This document shows, one piece after another, positions 22,051 through 32,216 of a stretch of 36,543 nt of DNA (position 1 is its first letter; every line of letters begins with the position of its first letter). The position numbers were made by a program, and so were the translations under genes. Under the pieces are notes generated by a model. It was not told the DNA's origin and did not search any database. It was given only the letters and a program-made list of their open reading frames with translations. The DNA is from Ilumatobacteraceae bacterium (lineage in GTDB: Bacteria > Actinomycetota > Acidimicrobiia > Acidimicrobiales > Ilumatobacteraceae). Location: contig JALRGJ010000001.1 of assembly GCA_023253435.1 (NCBI GenBank), positions 1-36,543 on the forward strand. The letters are read 5' to 3'.

Positions 22051-22623
22051 TTATCCCTTATTAATAAGGTGCAAAATTGCGTTACTGACCGCTTCAGCAG
22101 CTCTGTTACCTAGGTCTTCGTTCATGACATCTAATGACCGCAGTTCAATCAACGACTTTGTGACGGCATAGATTTCATCAGACATCTTTTTCCTATCGTC
22201 ACCCAGCCATGCTTGGTATTGGTTATTGAGCAAGATGTCTCTCGCACGCCGAATTTCGCTTGCTTGACTGAACCGAGCTGAATGGGTTTCCAGGGTTCGG
22301 ATCATGGCTGAGTGTTTACGAACGTATTCAAGTCGCAAATCCACCAAAGCCCTGAGGCGGTGTTCCATGTTGCCCTCAACTGGCTCAGTACTGAAATAGG
22401 GAGCAATTTGGGGGATGAGGTAGTCGGTCACAGCTTCGATGAGTTGGTCTTGTGAATTGAAATAGCGGAACAAAGTTCGCTCAGAGATCCCGGTTCGTTC
22501 AGCAAGTAACGCCATCGTTTGGACTTGCCCACCTTCAGAGAAGATCTGAGCTGCGGTTTCTAATGCTTGTTGGCGCCCGCGATTGCGCCGTTCATGGCGT
22601 CCATCTGTTGCGTTTTCCACCAT
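22051..22623 (-). CDS. TetR/AcrR family transcriptional regulator
   Basis: HTH: MALLAERTGISERTLFRYFNSQDQL. An SD (GGAGG) lies upstream. It is divergent from the large secreted-protein gene. Confidence 0.85.
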   Translation of the reverse strand: MVENATDGRHERRNRGRQQALETAAQIFSEGGQVQTMALLAERTGISERTLFRYFNSQDQLIEAVTDYLIPQIAPYFSTEPVEGNMEHRLRALVDLRLEYVRKHSAMIRTLETHSARFSQASEIRRARDILLNNQYQAWLGDDRKKMSDEIYAVTKSLIELRSLDVMNEDLGNRAAEAVSNAILHLINKG

Positions 22624-22671: not shown

Positions 22672-22677
22672 GTGTGC

Positions 22678-25600
22678 ATGTCAGCCAATTCTGCGTCTTC
22701 CATCCCCGTCCGTCGACTTCTTCTTGGAGTTGTGTCCCTGATGGCCTCGATTGTGGTGGTGGGGGTAGCCCCTAGCGCTGTGTCTGCTCAGGAAGAGGGG
22801 AAAGGCGCTCCAGATTTTCGACCACCATCAACGGAGATGGTGACTACTCGACTTGAATTACCAGAAGGCAACATTGTTCATCCGGGAAAATCACGACCAG
22901 TGCATGCGGTGTTTCATAACTCCGGATTCGATGCGGCGAACAACTTTGGTGTTTATGTGAAATCCCCTAAGGGAACTCAGGTCACTACTACATCGAAAAA
23001 TTGGTCATGTTCAAAAGAGTGGACACTGAAGGGTTACAAGTGTTCATATGCAAAGTCGCTTGAGGGTGAATCAGATGTAGATGCAATCTTTACGATCAAG
23101 AGTTTCAAAGATACTCCTGATGGCAAAGAGCATGTTTCTGTAACTCCATTTACATCTTCAAAGAAAAAAATTGAATCTCAAACCACTCCTTACACGATTG
23201 TGGATCTCGGCGACGCAGTTTTGCTTCCCCATGTTCAACACTTTTCACAGAACAAATGGAAAAAATGGACTGACGGAAGTCATGTAAAGACATACGCACA
23301 TGAGAAATATCGCTATCGCATTGTTGTTAATAATGAAGGGCACGAGACCCTGAAGAAGGGTTCCATTATTAACCTGCGTCAAAGAATCGGAAAGCATGTT
23401 GATCTCAATTCAGTAAAGGTGGCATTGGGTTACGGAACATGCTCCACTAAAAACAAAACTGTTAGCTGTGCACTGCGAGCAAGTGAAGATATTAAGCCAG
23501 GTGCTCATCTCACTTCAGTAGATGTCACCGTGACTCCACGTTCTGAAGAGGAACGAGTAAAACTCGGACTCATCTCTGTGACAAATCCGAAGAGTAAAGC
23601 ACTGCATTCTGCAAACGTGAATTTGGAGTCAACTCACCGTCCACCTTCTGTCAACATTGAACTGCATCATCGAACCCATGGTGAAGTGGGAGGAATTGCT
23701 CAAGTTGACGTCAAGCTTGAGAACATTTCGAAAAACATCACACACAAATCGCTCACAATGACGGCAAAGATGCCAAAAGAGATTTCATTCCGCAAGGTAA
23801 CTGGAACTGGATGGTCGTGTCAGCAAGAAGCCCGCATTTTGGAATGTAGGTATCGAGGAACAGTGGCGCCTAAGGCAACGTCTAAGAAAGCTGATATTTA
23901 CTTCCATATCTCCAAGAATGCATCTCCGAATGCTGATGGCTATGAGATTGACTTCTTGTCTGAGCACGCGGTGCGTCGATTCAATATGCCAGTTTTGCCA
24001 GCAATTGAACTCAATGTAGAAGCAACACCAGCTTCACTCTCCACGCAGTCAGATGTGAGAAGCAATATGGTGCGTTTAGATGCCGATGAGACACTTGATA
24101 ACGGAAATGCAGTGGACTACCAGTGGGTTCAACGCTGTACAACGGCACAAGATGTTCGAAAGTTTGATGCTTGTCCAAGCGGATCACCAGCACCAAAGGC
24201 GACTCTCAAGCACATCTATCAACCGCGTGCCCATGCTCTTATTCCTGATGTTGAAAAGAAGACAACGTTTGTTTTTGAGCTTCGCGCTTCTACTGAATCT
24301 TCTTCTGTAGAAAAAGTGGTGAAAGTTAAGGCATCTCCTCAATCAGTTTCTGCGGCTGGGGTGAGCTCTTGGGCAGTGACCACACCATCTTGGATTTCTA
24401 ACGCTCTTGTTGATGCGCAAGTAACTATCACCAATCCTGTTTTATCAAAGGGAAATTTCACCGCTGATGCCACCTTGCCTCAATCCATCATGGATCGATT
24501 CAAAGTGCCAAAGGATCAGAAGTTCTTATTGACAGCAACAGAGGTGCAGGGCAAAGAGTGCATAGTTATTCACGCCGGTGATACTAAAACAACTATCAAC
24601 ATGTTCTCGTTCACTACGGCGAATATGAAAGCAAAGTCGTTTGATTACATCGTGGCGCCTGCTTCTTGTACCTATTCAGGTGATACTTACAAAGGTCTCG
24701 GGTTGAGAATCAATGGTGAGGTTTTCGGTAATACTTTGACTTTCTCTGGTCCGGTGACGTTGACTCCAGCGTTGAAAGTGGATGCAAAGGCAACTACTAC
24801 AAGTTTGAATGTTTCGTTACCTGCGGGATCATTCAAATTTAAAAACGTCATCATTGGACTTCTGGTAGATGACTCAGCGGGTACCGCCAAGTTATCGATG
24901 GGCGGTGCATTCAATGTTTTCGGACTTGATATTGATGTAGTCGGAAATATTTCTGTACCCACCGGTGTAGGCGGTGCAGCTTTGGATGGCATGCAGGTGT
25001 CATTGACTACATCTACTTCACGAACATTCAAATTTGATGATGTGTCACTCAGTGATATGAGTCTGACAATTGGTCTGCGGTACACGCCGATATTGGCGGC
25101 AGACAAGGGGTTGATCTCTGTAAATGGCACCGGAACATTGGAGTTCATGGGTACCTCAGTAAAGATCTCACAACTTGAGGTGGACTTTGCCAACGGCCAA
25201 ATTGTTTCCACTCTCATTAAGGTCAGCGCAAATATGAAGATTCCTTCTATGAAGGAAGCCAAGGCTGATCTCTCTGTGATGTGGATTGCTGCTCAACCAG
25301 CAAAGCCGCTGCCTTCTGATGCCCCCAAGAATTCACCGGCACCATTGCCAACCCCGGCGTCTTTATCCGTTGACTTGACGGCAATTTTTGTCACCGACTC
25401 CGGTTTCTCTATTGGAACTCCTGCAAACCCTGCTTACTTGCACTACCGCAGCGGTCAGTGCATCTCAATGGGTGGACAAGTGATCGTTCCGGGAATTCTC
25501 GATGCAACAGTTTCCGGTTACCTGGTGACAGGTTTGCCATGTATGCCTGCGGCAATCAAGATGGGAGATGTACCCATTGTTGGTAAGCGTTCCATCTTGG

Positions 25601-26679
25601 CTGAAGTGCCACTACCTGTGGCCCCAGGAGATTGGCGTTTCGATGCTTCAAACGTGAAAATCACATTGGGTGGCTTTACAGCAACCGGAAACTTCACCAT
25701 TGGAAAAATGTACGGAGTTCCTTACGGATCACTCGATGCCCTCATTAATCTCACACCCTCTGACACAAAGAACACCATTTATGTACAGGGAAGTGTTGAT
25801 CCGTTAACTGGTGTGAAGTTAAAGGGTGAAGCTGATCTTCAAGTTGCTGGCGTGATGGCTCACTTCACGATTGATGCCGCCATGACCACTACAGATCAAC
25901 ACATTGCAGCTTCAGCAGATCTGAAGTTGGGTGGTTCTAAGTTCAGGCTCTCAGGCTATTTCGGACTTGAAAAGTATCAAGGACGAATGGTGCCATCTCA
26001 GAGTTTCACTGCATCGGTACCCAACTTTGAGATTGACGGATTCAAACTGGGATCTGCAGAACTGTCTATGTCTCAAACTCCAACTTCTGCAAGTGTGAGC
26101 GCTGCCCTCAAAGTGAATCTGGGCCTACTCAAATTTGATGGTGCTGCGTCATTCCACACTGTGAAAGATGGCGTGGCCATAACGGTAGATGCAGATGGAG
26201 AAATTGAAGTAAGTGATAAATGGAAGGGCGATATGTCTTTCCACATTTCAACCTGTGGCAATGATGCATGTACTTCAATGGGACCTCTAAAGATCACCGC
26301 AGGAGGACATGCTGTCATTCAAGGAAAGAAATTCGATTTAGGAACCATCAAATTCAATTCCGGCGGACACTTCAAAGAAAAGATCCGCTACAGCGACGAA
26401 TCTTGTGATAAGTCTGGAACGAAGGGTGGAATTCAGTTTGAAGGTTGCTTCAAGTACTCCATCATTGCGGAGATTTCAGACACTGCCCCTTATGCGCTGC
26501 TAGATGCTGACGCATCTCTGCACGTAAAGAGCAGAAGTCGTTGCACCTTGTGTATTCCAAAGAGATGGTACGGCTGGGACAGCTGGGGCACATTGTCTGG
26601 TGGTATTGAAGTGCAGTTTGATCCATTCAAACTTCGTCTTCACGTAGGAAGTATCAACATAAGTTTCAGCGGTAAATAG
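22678..26679 (+). CDS. Large secreted protein (1333 aa). It has three DUF11/CARDB-like Ig-fold modules, one PKD-like module and a ~780-aa C-terminal region of unknown family.
   Basis: The signal peptide is MSANSASSIPVRRLLLGVVSLMASIVVVGVAPSAVSA/QE. Three modules carry N-x-G...W/G-x-C...C...hydrophobic-strand patterns: FHNSGFDAA...NWSCSKEWTLKGYKCSY, VNNEGHETL...GYGTCSTKNKTVSCAL and LENISKNIT...GWSCQQEARILECRY. The segment DYQWVQ...TTFVFELRAS is PKD-like. I see no LPXTG motif, no C-terminal TM segment and no RTX or YD repeats. Confidence 0.85.
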   Translation: MSANSASSIPVRRLLLGVVSLMASIVVVGVAPSAVSAQEEGKGAPDFRPPSTEMVTTRLELPEGNIVHPGKSRPVHAVFHNSGFDAANNFGVYVKSPKGTQVTTTSKNWSCSKEWTLKGYKCSYAKSLEGESDVDAIFTIKSFKDTPDGKEHVSVTPFTSSKKKIESQTTPYTIVDLGDAVLLPHVQHFSQNKWKKWTDGSHVKTYAHEKYRYRIVVNNEGHETLKKGSIINLRQRIGKHVDLNSVKVALGYGTCSTKNKTVSCALRASEDIKPGAHLTSVDVTVTPRSEEERVKLGLISVTNPKSKALHSANVNLESTHRPPSVNIELHHRTHGEVGGIAQVDVKLENISKNITHKSLTMTAKMPKEISFRKVTGTGWSCQQEARILECRYRGTVAPKATSKKADIYFHISKNASPNADGYEIDFLSEHAVRRFNMPVLPAIELNVEATPASLSTQSDVRSNMVRLDADETLDNGNAVDYQWVQRCTTAQDVRKFDACPSGSPAPKATLKHIYQPRAHALIPDVEKKTTFVFELRASTESSSVEKVVKVKASPQSVSAAGVSSWAVTTPSWISNALVDAQVTITNPVLSKGNFTADATLPQSIMDRFKVPKDQKFLLTATEVQGKECIVIHAGDTKTTINMFSFTTANMKAKSFDYIVAPASCTYSGDTYKGLGLRINGEVFGNTLTFSGPVTLTPALKVDAKATTTSLNVSLPAGSFKFKNVIIGLLVDDSAGTAKLSMGGAFNVFGLDIDVVGNISVPTGVGGAALDGMQVSLTTSTSRTFKFDDVSLSDMSLTIGLRYTPILAADKGLISVNGTGTLEFMGTSVKISQLEVDFANGQIVSTLIKVSANMKIPSMKEAKADLSVMWIAAQPAKPLPSDAPKNSPAPLPTPASLSVDLTAIFVTDSGFSIGTPANPAYLHYRSGQCISMGGQVIVPGILDATVSGYLVTGLPCMPAAIKMGDVPIVGKRSILAEVPLPVAPGDWRFDASNVKITLGGFTATGNFTIGKMYGVPYGSLDALINLTPSDTKNTIYVQGSVDPLTGVKLKGEADLQVAGVMAHFTIDAAMTTTDQHIAASADLKLGGSKFRLSGYFGLEKYQGRMVPSQSFTASVPNFEIDGFKLGSAELSMSQTPTSASVSAALKVNLGLLKFDGAASFHTVKDGVAITVDADGEIEVSDKWKGDMSFHISTCGNDACTSMGPLKITAGGHAVIQGKKFDLGTIKFNSGGHFKEKIRYSDESCDKSGTKGGIQFEGCFKYSIIAEISDTAPYALLDADASLHVKSRSRCTLCIPKRWYGWDSWGTLSGGIEVQFDPFKLRLHVGSINISFSGK

Positions 26680-26689
26680 CTGATTTTGG

Positions 26690-26710
26690 CCGTGGTGAAG
26701 TTCACCACGG
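26690..26710 (+). terminator. Stem-loop 11 nt after the large gene's stop codon (possible attenuator or terminator, no U-tract)
   Basis: CCGTGGTGAA-G-TTCACCACGG is a perfect 10+10 palindrome. A realistic hairpin would be ~8 bp with a 5-nt loop. It is not followed by a T-run, so intrinsic-terminator function is uncertain. Confidence 0.35.
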
Positions 26711-26728
26711 GATAGCAATAAACCAGTA

Positions 26729-26764
26729 GGTTCTCCTTCGTATCGTGAGATATGAAGGAGAACC
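26729..26764 (+). promoter_or_regulatory. Shine-Dalgarno-sequestering hairpin in the heliorhodopsin leader
   Basis: GGTTCTCCTTC (26729-26739) is the exact reverse complement of GAAGGAGAACC (26754-26764), with a 14-nt loop. The 3' arm contains the AAGGAG SD (26755-26760), which sits 6 nt before the ATG at 26767. The 5' arm contains CTCCTT, an anti-SD mimic. Confidence 0.5.
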
Positions 26765-26766
26765 CC

Positions 26767-27516
26767 ATGGATGTCACATTTTCCAAACTGAAGCGACTTA
26801 ATTTGTGGGCCGCAGTCTTGCACTTAGTGCAAGGTGTTGCGGTTCTGGCTTTGGCAAATGATTTTGCGCTACCCGTCACAAGTTTTTTCTGGAATTCAGC
26901 ACCAACAAACACTCTAGATATCAATCGTATGGACAGAATGTTTGACGTGTCTATCGCATGGGCAGCTGCAATATTTCTTTTCTTGTCTGCACTGTTTCAT
27001 TTCATCGTTGCAACATCGGGAAGATCGCTTTACGAGCAGGAGATTTCACATCAACAGAACAGGTTCAGATGGGTGGAGTACTCAATTTCATCCACTGTGA
27101 TGATTATGAGCATCTGTCTGGTGTTTGGCATTTCAGATGTTGCTGGACTATTAGGAATCGCAGGAACAAATATTTCAATGATTTTGTTCGGGTGGATCAT
27201 GGAAGTTGTTAATAAGCCAGGAAATAAAGTGTGGTGGACCCCATTTTGGTTTGGCTGTATAGCAGGAATAATGCCGTGGCTTGGATTATTGGTGTACCTG
27301 TTTGGTCCTGGTGACGACATGCCAACATTTGTGTACGGAATTTTCATCACCATATTTATTTTCTTTAACTTGTTTGCTCTGAATCAGTACTTGCAATACA
27401 AACAAGTGGGGAAGTGGACAAGTTATGTTTATGGCGAACGGGTCTATCTCATCTTGAGTCTCACTGCAAAGAGTGCCCTTGCGTGGCAGCTTTACGGCAA
27501 CACGTTAAGTAACTAA
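26767..27516 (+). CDS. Heliorhodopsin (retinal-binding 7-TM protein)
   Basis: 249 aa with seven hydrophobic helices. The family-typical blocks are VLALANDFALP, FRWVEYSISS (counter-ion Glu, codon 27076-27078), ILFGW, PFWFGCIAGIMPW and ILSLTAKSALAWQ (Schiff-base Lys, codon 27469-27471). These match my recollection of heliorhodopsin 48C12. It lacks the RYxDW / DTx motifs of type-1 rhodopsins. The start at 26767 is preferred over 26752 because of the AAGGAG SD. Confidence 0.9.
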   Translation: MDVTFSKLKRLNLWAAVLHLVQGVAVLALANDFALPVTSFFWNSAPTNTLDINRMDRMFDVSIAWAAAIFLFLSALFHFIVATSGRSLYEQEISHQQNRFRWVEYSISSTVMIMSICLVFGISDVAGLLGIAGTNISMILFGWIMEVVNKPGNKVWWTPFWFGCIAGIMPWLGLLVYLFGPGDDMPTFVYGIFITIFIFFNLFALNQYLQYKQVGKWTSYVYGERVYLILSLTAKSALAWQLYGNTLSN

Positions 27517-27525
27517 AAGTTCTTT

Positions 27526-28482
27526 ATGAGACTTGGATCGTTTATTGATGGAGCAATGGATGCGCTTGTTGTACCTGGATTTTCGCGGGTTGGATATGCA
27601 ATTCGCTCCACACAATTCTCATCTCTTAGGTCTTATTCGCTCTCAGGTAAAACAGTGGTTGTTACGGGCCCTACCTCAGGCCTGGGGAATGCACTTGCGG
27701 AACAATTGGCCTCTATGAATGCGAACTTGGTATTAGTAGGAAGATCTGCAGAAAAACTCCGCATTACAATCGGGGCTCTGCATAAGCAGTTCCCTGCAGT
27801 CAACGTTGTCTCTGTAGTTGCTGACATGAGTGATTTACATTCGGTGCGAGAAGCTTCTCAAGAAATCTCAACACAGTGCCCTCAAATTCATGCGCTAGTG
27901 CATAACGCTGGAGCGTTGTTAAAGAACAGAGAGCAGACTGCTCAAAATCTCGAAACGACCATTGCATGTCATGTAGTTGGTCCACATCTAATGACTTCGC
28001 TTCTACTACCCGTTTTAAGAGCTTCACACGGCCGTGTCATCACGGTGTCATCTGGAGGAATGTACGCAGCAACTCTGACAGATATAAAACATGGAGAATC
28101 TCCTGAAATGTCGCCAGAGAAATACGATGGCACGAGGCAGTATGCAATTGCCAAGCGACTTCAAGTCACATTGAATGAAATGTGGGCCGAGCGTGAGCCA
28201 GGAATTGCATTTGCCGCTATGCATCCTGGATGGGCAGATACTCCCGGGGTCCAGGCTTCATTGCCAACGTTTCGACTATTGACTAAGCCGTTTCTCCGGT
28301 CTCCAGAGCAAGGAGCAGACACAATTGCCTGGTTGGTTGCAGATGACACGATTCTGAGGAAGAGCGGAAAATTTTGGTGTGATCGAGAAGTGCGTTCTAT
28401 TCACAAAACAGGCAAATCTAGAAAGTCTGATACTCGTGAGGCGCGCGAAGCACTCTGGGAATGGTGTCAAAAATACATCTGA
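27526..28482 (+). CDS. Short-chain dehydrogenase/reductase (SDR), DHRS12-like
   Basis: It has the cofactor motif VVVTGPTSGLGNALA, NAG (VHNAGA), the catalytic YxxxK (YAIAK) and the DHRS12-type C-terminal block HPGWADTPGV...LRSPEQGADTIAWL...SGKFWCDR. It starts 9 nt after the heliorhodopsin stop. Confidence 0.88.
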   Translation: MRLGSFIDGAMDALVVPGFSRVGYAIRSTQFSSLRSYSLSGKTVVVTGPTSGLGNALAEQLASMNANLVLVGRSAEKLRITIGALHKQFPAVNVVSVVADMSDLHSVREASQEISTQCPQIHALVHNAGALLKNREQTAQNLETTIACHVVGPHLMTSLLLPVLRASHGRVITVSSGGMYAATLTDIKHGESPEMSPEKYDGTRQYAIAKRLQVTLNEMWAEREPGIAFAAMHPGWADTPGVQASLPTFRLLTKPFLRSPEQGADTIAWLVADDTILRKSGKFWCDREVRSIHKTGKSRKSDTREAREALWEWCQKYI

Positions 28483-30937: not shown

Positions 30938-31549
30938 TTACTTCTCGCCAAAGAGAAGATGGAGAACTGACTCATTCATAATCTTCTCCCACTGAGCAAC
31001 GTCAATGGTGCTTCCATCCATATTGCTGAGAACTTTTCCGAGAATCGCGCCGTTATACCAAGCTACTGCTGCTCGTAGATCTACATCTTGGTTAATAAAA
31101 CCTGATTGTTGAAAAGGTGAGAGCGCCTTTGCAATCTCATCAACAACTTGATTGTGTGATTCGGCAATTCGAAGAGTAAGAGAGTCACGAGCAAACGCAG
31201 AACCAAGTGCATTTAGTCGCTTCCAACGAACTTCAACTTGTGCAGGTTTATCGTGCCGAGAGAACAGTGCTTTGACAACCTCTCGTAAGTCTTCTTTTGT
31301 TTTAACTTTGGTGAGCTCATTATTAAAAAATTCTGCATCAGACAAGATACTGCGAAGAAAACGCTCAGCTTGAGCCTCTTCAACGAGACCCTCTCGATTT
31401 CCAAAATAGTGATAGAGAGTAGGAGGTGTTGTACCAGCTTCTGCAACAATTTGATTTGTACGAATTGCATGTTCGCCGTATTTATCAATGACTTCAATTG
31501 CTAACTCAAGCAGTGTTGATCTCATGTCTCGAGTAGTCATTGCGCTCAA
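30938..31549 (-). CDS. TetR/AcrR family transcriptional regulator
   Basis: HTH: IRTNQIVAEAGTTPPTLYHYFGNREGL. Confidence 0.85.
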   Translation of the reverse strand: MSAMTTRDMRSTLLELAIEVIDKYGEHAIRTNQIVAEAGTTPPTLYHYFGNREGLVEEAQAERFLRSILSDAEFFNNELTKVKTKEDLREVVKALFSRHDKPAQVEVRWKRLNALGSAFARDSLTLRIAESHNQVVDEIAKALSPFQQSGFINQDVDLRAAVAWYNGAILGKVLSNMDGSTIDVAQWEKIMNESVLHLLFGEK

Positions 31550-31586: not shown

Positions 31587-32216
31587 TCAGCTTTCTGTGG
31601 GAAACATTGCATCAATAAAGAAAGTGATTAATTTCCACCATTCCTCGGGCGCCGGGCCATTTTCTGCAAGAACATCGATTATGTTTGATCCAATATTGAT
31701 CACATTAAGTGCAGTTGCCACGGAACGAGGGTCAAGGTCGCTACGTAAAAAACCTTTTTGTTGCGCATCTGTCATGAGTTCAACAACCAACTCAAGATGT
31801 CGGGACTGCACATCGTGCATCATTGCTTTCAGTTCTGGATCATTTTGAGTTTCCACCAAAATAGAAAGACGACCCCACCGTTCTTTGACTTGTTTTTTAT
31901 CGTACGGGTCAATGATGAAAGGAAGAATCTGGGCTAAGTAGTCCTCTTTTGAAGTGGAAGTGTTTAAGGCAACTGAAATTGCCGAGATTGTTTCCATGCT
32001 AAAACGTCGGATTTGTTCTGCGATGGCAGCCTTGATGAGACCTTGACGATCTTCAAAGTGCCAGTACAGGGAGCCTTTTGTAACTCCCACTTCTTCAACA
32101 ATCTCATCTACTCGAACTGCGTCAATCCCTTTTTCAAGGATTGTTCGAAGTGCAACATCTATGAGTTGAGTACGTGAATCAAGGCTCTTCACCGGCTTTT
32201 TTGATTGCGGCGTCAT
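31587..32216 (-). CDS. TetR/AcrR family transcriptional regulator
   Basis: HTH: VRVDEIVEEVGVTKGSLYWHFEDRQGL. The start overlaps the stop of the upstream Gfo/Idh/MocA gene by 4 nt. Confidence 0.88.
   Translation of the reverse strand: MTPQSKKPVKSLDSRTQLIDVALRTILEKGIDAVRVDEIVEEVGVTKGSLYWHFEDRQGLIKAAIAEQIRRFSMETISAISVALNTSTSKEDYLAQILPFIIDPYDKKQVKERWGRLSILVETQNDPELKAMMHDVQSRHLELVVELMTDAQQKGFLRSDLDPRSVATALNVINIGSNIIDVLAENGPAPEEWWKLITFFIDAMFPTES

Follow-up and report, generated by a model that had tools for sequence, protein, structure and literature searches.

How does a heliorhodopsin (HeR) gene come to be translated when its ribosome-binding site lies within one strand of a long and nearly perfect RNA helix? 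The locus that raises this question lies in a stretch of 36,543 nucleotides from an uncultured Ilumatobacteraceae bacterium, to which we refer throughout as the window and which is contig C111 of a 1.45-Mb assembly in 305 contigs, rated 66% complete. The function and regulation of HeR are still open, and Bulzu et al. (2021, PMC8612252) state that the control of its transcription is not yet clear; had a translational gate been conserved, it would have offered a useful way into the question. A literature search for heliorhodopsin together with Shine-Dalgarno (SD) returned nothing on the subject, giant-virus metagenomics alone, which we judged unrelated by title. An earlier note on this DNA had proposed that translation of HeR is likely gated by mRNA structure, with an RNA-thermometer-like element, coupling to upstream translation and a trans-acting factor as the possible mechanisms. 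Here we follow up that proposal by computation, within the window, across the rest of the assembly and among related genomes.

A hairpin over the heliorhodopsin ribosome-binding site

The HeR ORF (26767–27516, + strand, 249 aa) is intact, with a full-length match to Pfam PF18761 (E 8.7e-94, residues 8–247). It follows, on the same strand, an ORF of 1335 aa (22672–26679, with its TAG stop at 26677–26679) that matched no Pfam family and is a possible source of read-through, and the stop-to-start spacer between the two is 87 nt long. A second in-frame ATG is present at 26752, upstream of the one used here; we favour 26767 as the start of HeR because the N-termini of many relatives begin MD..F..L+.LN.

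Within the spacer, GGTTCTCCTTC (26729–26739) and GAAGGAGAACC (26754–26764) are exact reverse complements with 14 nt between them, as the earlier note recognized; its coordinates hold on a check of the sequence, as does its placing of an AAGGAG (26755–26760) in the downstream arm, 6 nt ahead of the ATG at 26767, and of a CTCCTT (26733–26738) in the upstream arm. The arms of the 11-bp hairpin that it described are indeed exact, but the description understated the pairing, which runs five pairs further to give a stem of 16 bp (26729–26744/26749–26764) whose arms are 94% complementary as DNA. In this structure, hereafter hairpin 2, the 5′ arm (26729–26744, + strand) carries the anti-SD-like CUCCUU, a GUGA tetraloop of the GNRA type (26745–26748, + strand) is closed by the pair C26744–G26749, and the 3′ arm (26749–26764, + strand) holds both the second in-frame ATG (26752–26754) and the SD. 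The sole irregular pair is G26740–U26753 on the + strand RNA, which becomes A–C on the minus strand; on the + strand RNA the helix is unbroken, with 15 Watson-Crick pairs and one G–U. Three further pairs form beyond the 16-bp stem across a 3×3 internal loop, and the stem ends 2 nt short of the HeR ATG.

Hairpin 2 is a real RNA-level structure, beyond what chance would give. Its folding energy is −27.3 kcal/mol (z −7.44), a stability that none of 200 shuffles reached, compared with −24.1 kcal/mol for its minus-strand RNA, and the 126-nt leader as a whole gives a z of −6.87. On an RNA with both arms, the computed fold pairs the SD of HeR with probability 1.00. The SSU rRNA is absent from the 66%-complete assembly and the 16S anti-SD sequence is therefore assumed.

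The leader contains one more hairpin. Palindrome 1, or hairpin 1 (26690–26710, + strand), has a 9-bp stem, a 3-nt loop and no T-tract, begins 10 nt past the upstream TAG stop and folds at −15.5 kcal/mol (z −4.61). The earlier note rightly described it as perfect and as lying just after the preceding stop codon, but the gap that separates it from hairpin 2 is 18 nt (26711–26728), not 19. Its sequence is single in the genome, and a search for a regulon gave 23 matches at three or fewer mismatches, against 19 for a reversed control, and itself alone at zero or one mismatch. Matches of 22 nt to hairpin 1 in six genomes of the genus were set aside as coincidence, since they fall inside a conserved coding gene in the two loci that could be located. 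Hairpin 1 may serve the upstream gene as a 3′-end structure, or it may be a site to which a protein binds. We looked for a break in GC content around 26700 and found none.

The start region in the context of its own genome

Crude gene calls (ORFs of at least 100 aa, with shadow ORFs removed greedily and starts chosen by SD match) gave 1376 start regions, of which that of HeR (−50..+10) is the most structured, at −31.1 kcal/mol against a mean of −13.0 and an sd of 4.2. In a −87..+36 context, opening the RNA from the SD through the AUG of HeR costs 22.5 kcal/mol, which ranks first among 617 SD-led genes; over those genes the same cost has a median of 6.0, a 95th percentile of 12.3 and a maximum of 22.8 kcal/mol. 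The leader (26680–26770) matches itself alone in the 1.45-Mb, 66%-complete assembly, and this single copy rules out a palindromic repeat of the REP or MITE type.

Perfect hairpins as such are not scarce in this genome. Those of at least 11 bp with loops of 3–20 nt number 48, where chance would give about 6 (1,453,790 × 18 × 4^-11), and many of them are canonical terminators, with GC-rich stems that lie after a stop codon between A- and T-tracts (for example C294:6619–6648 and C210:1030–1057). By our own count, some 21 of the 48 fall within 50 nt past a stop codon, and both hairpins of the HeR leader lie within 90 nt past that of the 1335-aa gene; hairpins 1 and 2 could in this light be 3′-end structures of the upstream gene, acting as a terminator or a barrier to exonucleases, with the overlap with the SD incidental. 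We consider this rather improbable. The hairpins that follow stops in this genome typically sit between A- and T-tracts, whereas hairpin 2 has no T-tail (2 T in the 12 nt of its tail window), and its stem, which has the SD site at its centre, includes the exact complement of that site. Furthermore, the orthologues of the 1335-aa gene do without such hairpins: they occur in 5 of 80 other genomes of the genus, with 45–51% identity over the last 399 residues, and in those five neither hairpin 1 nor hairpin 2 is present and HeR is not the next gene, the adjoining of this gene and HeR being confined to the present genome. As an intrinsic terminator in particular, hairpin 2 was rejected on its missing T-tail and on a terminator scan that made no + strand call at it.

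Elsewhere in the assembly, at G000:C261:19012–19060, two overlapping AT-rich perfect palindromes lie beside the start of a minus-strand gene in an operator-like arrangement.

Proposed ways of opening the hairpin

The burial of the ribosome site is the part of the gating proposal that stands: whenever both arms are present, the SD is fully buried. The thermometer and the coupling that had been attached to it are unsupported, as is refolding. On folding at several temperatures, the SD is paired with a probability of 1.000 throughout the range 4–37 °C, and heating lowers this value to no less than 0.997 at 65 °C and 0.982 at 85 °C. With pairing of the SD above 98% at every temperature up to 85 °C, hairpin 2 is not a thermometer, and this mechanism is excluded for any aquatic organism. 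A cmscan search against Rfam over 26000–27600, with E values allowed up to 10, returned three matches at chance level, with no thermometer or other relevant family among them.

Direct translational coupling fails on distance, since the stop codon of the 1335-aa ORF lies 50 nt 5′ of the 5′ arm; a ribosome terminating there could reach the edge of hairpin 1, never hairpin 2. A search for a small ORF, led by a start codon, that would carry upstream ribosomes across the 5′ arm found none. Switch-like refolding was likewise rejected: in a scan of about 430 nt upstream and downstream of the arms, the best alternative partner for either arm reached −13.7 kcal/mol, compared with −25.5 kcal/mol for the duplex of the two arms. 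With no Rfam match and no competing fold, a riboswitch or other cis-regulatory leader of an Rfam family was set aside as well.

There is also the possibility of a regulated gate operated in trans, in which an RNase III, a helicase, a small RNA or an RNA-binding protein opens or cuts the hairpin on a signal. The lock is too strong to open spontaneously, so that a factor of this kind would be required if the HeR mRNA has both arms, and the genome does encode an RNase III (an rnc homologue at C67:1937–2572, 220.8 bits against a cut-off of 166.25). We nevertheless regard a regulated gate as quite improbable. A processing site for this enzyme calls for some two helical turns of double-stranded RNA, and the leader offers the 16 bp of the stem plus the three pairs beyond the internal loop; judged by geometry, however, cleavage by RNase III at a distance of about 11 bp, or about one helical turn, from the loop would hit the SD site itself. 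In addition, neither an alternative fold nor an anti-anti-SD element exists in cis, no Rfam family matches, and the thermometer version of such a gate is excluded. To the more specific scenario of a HeR mRNA that has both arms and is opened in trans by such a factor under light or oxidative stress, we give very little credence.

A candidate promoter at the foot of the 5′ arm

The question of which transcripts carry both arms leads to the promoters of this genome. Among 759 genes with a weak SD or none, the hexamer TANNNT stands 6 nt before the start in 5.7% and 7 nt before it in 3.6%, over a background of about 0.3% around such starts, and the count falls to zero at 5 nt. The 70 sites of this leaderless type give the −10 consensus T-A-G(0.59)-G(0.41)-G(0.43)-T (TAGgGT), with no −35 signal among them; this leaderless-promoter signature, 6–7 nt before the start codon, can guide annotation. 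Genome-wide, TANNNT is depleted about threefold (0.26% observed versus 0.76% expected from the frequencies of TA and T), which fits selection against stray promoters.

A −10 matrix trained on the leaderless sites, with its information mostly in T, A and T plus the G at position 3, picks out TAGGTT (26727–26732, + strand, score 9.00) as a candidate −10. The hexamer sits where the 5′ arm of hairpin 2 begins, and the transcript start predicted from it, 26739/26740, lies inside that arm. About 5e-5 of the positions in the genome score as high, so that 0.004 would be expected in 87 nt, and the site is among the top 137 of 2.87 million positions on both strands. Of these 137 sites scoring at least 9, 17 are at the leaderless distance, 25 are intergenic at 8–150 nt before a start and 41 are inside genes. 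The share in promoter-like positions (42 of the 137, against 242 of the 4141 lowest-scoring TANNNT sites) gives the score a real but limited predictive value, which for a top score is perhaps 30–50%, judging from these positions.

A weaker −10 candidate, TATCGT (26741–26746, + strand, score 6.56, with 0.039 expected in 87 nt), has its predicted start near 26753/26754. It stands 5 nt ahead of the ATG at 26752, outside the 6–7 nt leaderless spacing of the genome, and a leaderless start at that ATG was rejected because the 5-nt spacing is found in 0 of the 759 weak-SD genes.

The predicted start is of consequence for the fold. A start 6–7 nt past TAGGTT would remove 10–11 of the 16 nt of the 5′ arm. 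For an RNA whose 5′ end is at 26680, the cost of opening the SD through the AUG is 22.5 kcal/mol, and for one that begins at 26729 it is 21.5 kcal/mol; with the 5′ end at 26739, 26740 or 26753 it drops to 2.3 kcal/mol, compared with the genome median of 6.0. A candidate −10 stands 27–75 nt upstream in 41 SD-led genes, and across this set the difference in opening cost between the long and the short RNA has a median of 1.8 kcal/mol; HeR leads with 20.2 kcal/mol, followed by a gene with 8.5. A bypass of this kind, through a −10-like hexamer at the 5′ arm, would be simpler than a regulated gate, as it needs no gating at all.

The same geometry can be read at the level of DNA. If the predicted start is correct, the palindrome covers about −13 to +24 relative to it, the classic position of a repressor, and the 36-bp inverted repeat could be an operator at which a dimeric repressor, or a pair of dimers, sits over the −10 and the transcript start of HeR. 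Three TetR-family genes are present in the window, and the HeR leaders of three relatives (loci L033, L007 and L046) carry a different palindrome, CTGAACAnTGTTCAG, just after TATAGT. We think an operator very improbable nonetheless: its arms would have no reason to be an SD site and the complement of that site, the lone mismatch pairs (as G–U) in the + strand RNA only, two 16-bp halves around a 4-bp spacer make a long site for one dimer, and there is no second copy in the genome.

The three TetR-family genes (22051–22623, 30938–31549 and 31587–32216, all on the minus strand) flank the HeR region, the first of them divergent from the 1335-aa gene. A search for an operator common to them and the HeR leader found none.

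Comparison with relatives

HeR was matched in 37 of the 61 genomes searched, the present one included, and in 30 of the 36 within the genus. A scan of metagenomes turned up 323 relatives; among the best 80 of them, to which we confined the comparison, the closest HeR is 83% identical in protein. The earlier note had named a lack of conserved pairing in related loci, together with arm-disrupting mutations that leave reporter translation unaffected, as what would speak against gating, and the first of these is what we find, no related locus keeping the pairing. None of the 105 other HeR loci that we examined has hairpin 2, and a DNA search with the leader in 80 other genomes of the genus gave nothing better than E 0.049. 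Since no alignable orthologous leader was found, there is no covariation to test, and conservation is absent.

Strong structure of any kind is rare in front of HeR. The upstream sequence was long enough for comparison at 106 HeR loci, and in four of these the region −120..+30 contains a 50-nt fold at or below −27 kcal/mol, namely the present locus (GC 0.44) and three with a GC of 0.71–0.74, in which the hairpins lie at −114 to −56, off the ribosome site. Among 18 SD-led HeR leaders of the closest relatives, with starts chosen by eye, 16 are ordinary (z −0.1 to +1.8); the exceptions are the leader studied here (z −8.4) and that of locus L006 (z −3.07). The regulated gate considered above draws some support from L006, an unrelated leader (79% amino acid identity in HeR) that also folds over the ribosome-binding site, yet 16 of the 18 leaders compared have ordinary, unstructured ribosome sites, and the absence of conservation counts against such a gate as well. 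In L006, the sole other structured HeR leader, the difference between a long and a short RNA is modest, the opening cost going from 10.4 to 6.4 kcal/mol.

The L006 structure (G030:C58) is a two-tier fold of −23 kcal/mol that covers both the SD and the start codon. Counted from the GTG at which this HeR starts, it runs from −46 to +1, which corresponds to −37..+10 in projected-codon coordinates. The hexamer TAAGTT lies in an internal loop of this structure, a weaker parallel to the arrangement in the window.

In 9 of the 14 other SD-led HeR leaders, TANNNT is found 25–67 nt before the start codon; in this clade, HeR therefore appears usually to have a promoter of its own and a short 5′ UTR. In a further set (L035, L038, L044, L041, L042, L043 and L045, and likewise L025–L028, L031 and L032), inspection by eye found NANNNT or TANNNT 6–7 nt before the HeR ATG and no usable SD. 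From these sequences, it seems that several relatives express HeR from a leaderless mRNA and others from one with an SD; the HeR genes of the genus usually have a −10-like hexamer of their own, close upstream or in a leaderless arrangement.

As for sequence shared with other leaders, local alignment against the 105 loci, with 300 shuffles, yielded an 11-nt match of the SD plus spacer to L033 (z 3.8) and two unrelated short matches. The SD site and spacer, AGGAGAACCCC, recur in L033, a locus at 78% identity, without the 5′ arm. A wider homology with the leaders of L033, L007 and L046, hinted at by a MAFFT alignment of GTATCGT with their GTATAGT, was rejected when local alignment gave none.

Those three leaders share a feature that is absent from the window: GTATAGT followed by the palindrome CTGAACAnTGTTCAG, of which L006 has a partial version. 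The shared feature lies at about −69 to −35 from the HeR start in L033, about −53 to −18 in L007 and about −50 to −24 in L046 and L047. On sequence, GTATAGT plus CTGAACAnTGTTCAG is a candidate for a −10 with an operator or with a 5′-terminal stem-loop.

The recurrence of the 3′ arm in L033 bears on how hairpin 2 arose. It is conceivable that the hairpin is young and without function, left behind when a replication template switch copied the SD region nearby in inverted orientation, and that it is neutral or silences the translation of HeR in this lineage. The arms (15 Watson-Crick pairs and one G–U out of 16) are what one recent event would give; the hairpin is missing from the 105 other HeR loci and the 80 genomes of the genus, and the gene junction itself is unique to this genome; and as AGGAGAACCCC stands in L033 without a 5′ arm, the 3′ arm looks the older of the two. 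Monttinen and Loytynoja (2022, PMC8794818) and Lavi et al. (2018, PMC5941160) report that template switching makes perfect stems in a single event. Against this stand the intact HeR, for which a full translational block would be expected to be costly unless bypassed, and the −10-like hexamer at the foot of the arm and the GNRA-type loop, both of which suit a working arrangement. A functionless by-product is thus unlikely in our view, if by no means negligible, and an origin by inverted duplication is compatible with function as an insulator. The near-perfect arms themselves suggest that hairpin 2 arose recently by such a duplication, through a template switch.

Arms identical to the 11-nt arms of hairpin 2 also occur in 13 stretches from unrelated phyla among GTDB representatives; these are independent occurrences and not relatives. 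In one of them (L127, a Holophagae MAG), the hairpin is followed after 2 nt by the ATG of a 476-aa ORF, the same geometry as in the HeR leader, and in another (L123, a Subtercola MAG) an ATG opens an ORF of 326 aa 11 nt past the hairpin; L128 (a Desulfuromonadaceae MAG) is a further member of the 13. In a Phycisphaerae MAG, a 42-nt hairpin lies about 10 nt from the ends of four contigs (L119, L120, L122 and L129), and an identical one lies at a contig end in another MAG (L121); these look like a repeat family of the kind that breaks assemblies.

A proposed fixed lock on read-through transcripts

What, then, is hairpin 2 most plausibly doing? We tentatively favour, with somewhat less than even confidence, the reading that it is a fixed lock on read-through transcripts only, which HeR bypasses from its own predicted promoter. 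This reading starts from what the computation shows, namely the structure, stability and uniqueness of hairpin 2 and the energetic contrast between long and short RNAs. On any transcript carrying both arms, hairpin 2 would lock the HeR ribosome site permanently; such transcripts would be those that read through from the upstream 1335-aa gene, and the hairpin would act on them as a fixed block or insulator and not as a sensor. HeR itself would be expressed from a promoter of its own, with the predicted −10 TAGGTT (26727–26732) at the foot of the 5′ arm, and its transcripts, beginning at 26739/26740 without 10–11 of the 16 nt of that arm, would leave the ribosome site open. What we infer in this reading is the promoter, the position at which transcription starts, the read-through and any selective benefit.

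How much such an insulator would matter is a separate question. Hairpin 1 might already halt read-through from the 1335-aa gene, and hairpin 2 may be tolerated, not selected, since the promoter bypasses it. As far as the genomes compared can tell, it occurs in one genome, and there is no conservation that argues for any function. A structure confined to one genome, whose likeliest role is that of a mere insulator from a newly adjacent gene, says little on the biology of HeR generally. Were the regulated gate to prove true, heliorhodopsins would gain their first described case of post-transcriptional control, and the independently evolved structure of L006 would then indicate convergent selection for such control.

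Comparison with known systems

Hairpins that mask an SD, and promoters embedded in them, are textbook mechanisms, and the work of de Smit and van Duin and the ribosome-binding-site calculator of Salis reportedly provide quantitative models that tie the stability of a stem to translation. It is informative to set the HeR leader beside the systems that it resembles. RNA thermometers of the ROSE and fourU types are short, mismatched stems that melt at about 30–42 °C; they share with hairpin 2 an upstream pyrimidine-rich strand that pairs with the SD just before the start codon, whereas the HeR stem keeps the SD paired with a probability of at least 0.98 to 85 °C and matches no thermometer in Rfam. 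In intercistronic coupling hairpins, such as those of MS2 coat/replicase or of the infC-rpmI-rplT type, the SD of the downstream cistron is likewise masked by upstream RNA, but there the ribosomes of the upstream cistron traverse the masking strand, and the ORF ahead of HeR ends 50 nt short of the 5′ arm. The intrinsic terminators of the same genome are, like hairpin 2, stable stem-loops soon after a stop codon; they differ from it in their GC-rich stems with A- and T-tracts. Repeats made by template switching share its near-perfect arms, as if a neighbouring sequence had been copied once in reverse complement, although this likeness concerns origin and not function, and there is no orthologous leader to give the ancestral state.

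The closest parallel in mechanism comes from bacteriophage T4. According to a section of Uzan and Miller (2010, PMC3014915), the SD and/or the AUG of genes e (lysozyme), soc, 49 and I-TevI are buried in a helix on long read-through transcripts, a promoter lies within the DNA for the 5′ strand of that helix, and the short transcripts, without that strand, are well translated. The HeR leader is unlike this set in that its internal promoter is a predicted one, in that HeR is a cellular gene with no known early/late programme, and in that its helix, of 16 bp and nearly perfect, is confined to one genome and not conserved in relatives. It is like gene e in that, on the long transcript, the SD of HeR is buried, with a computed pairing of 1.0 and an opening cost of 22.5 kcal/mol.
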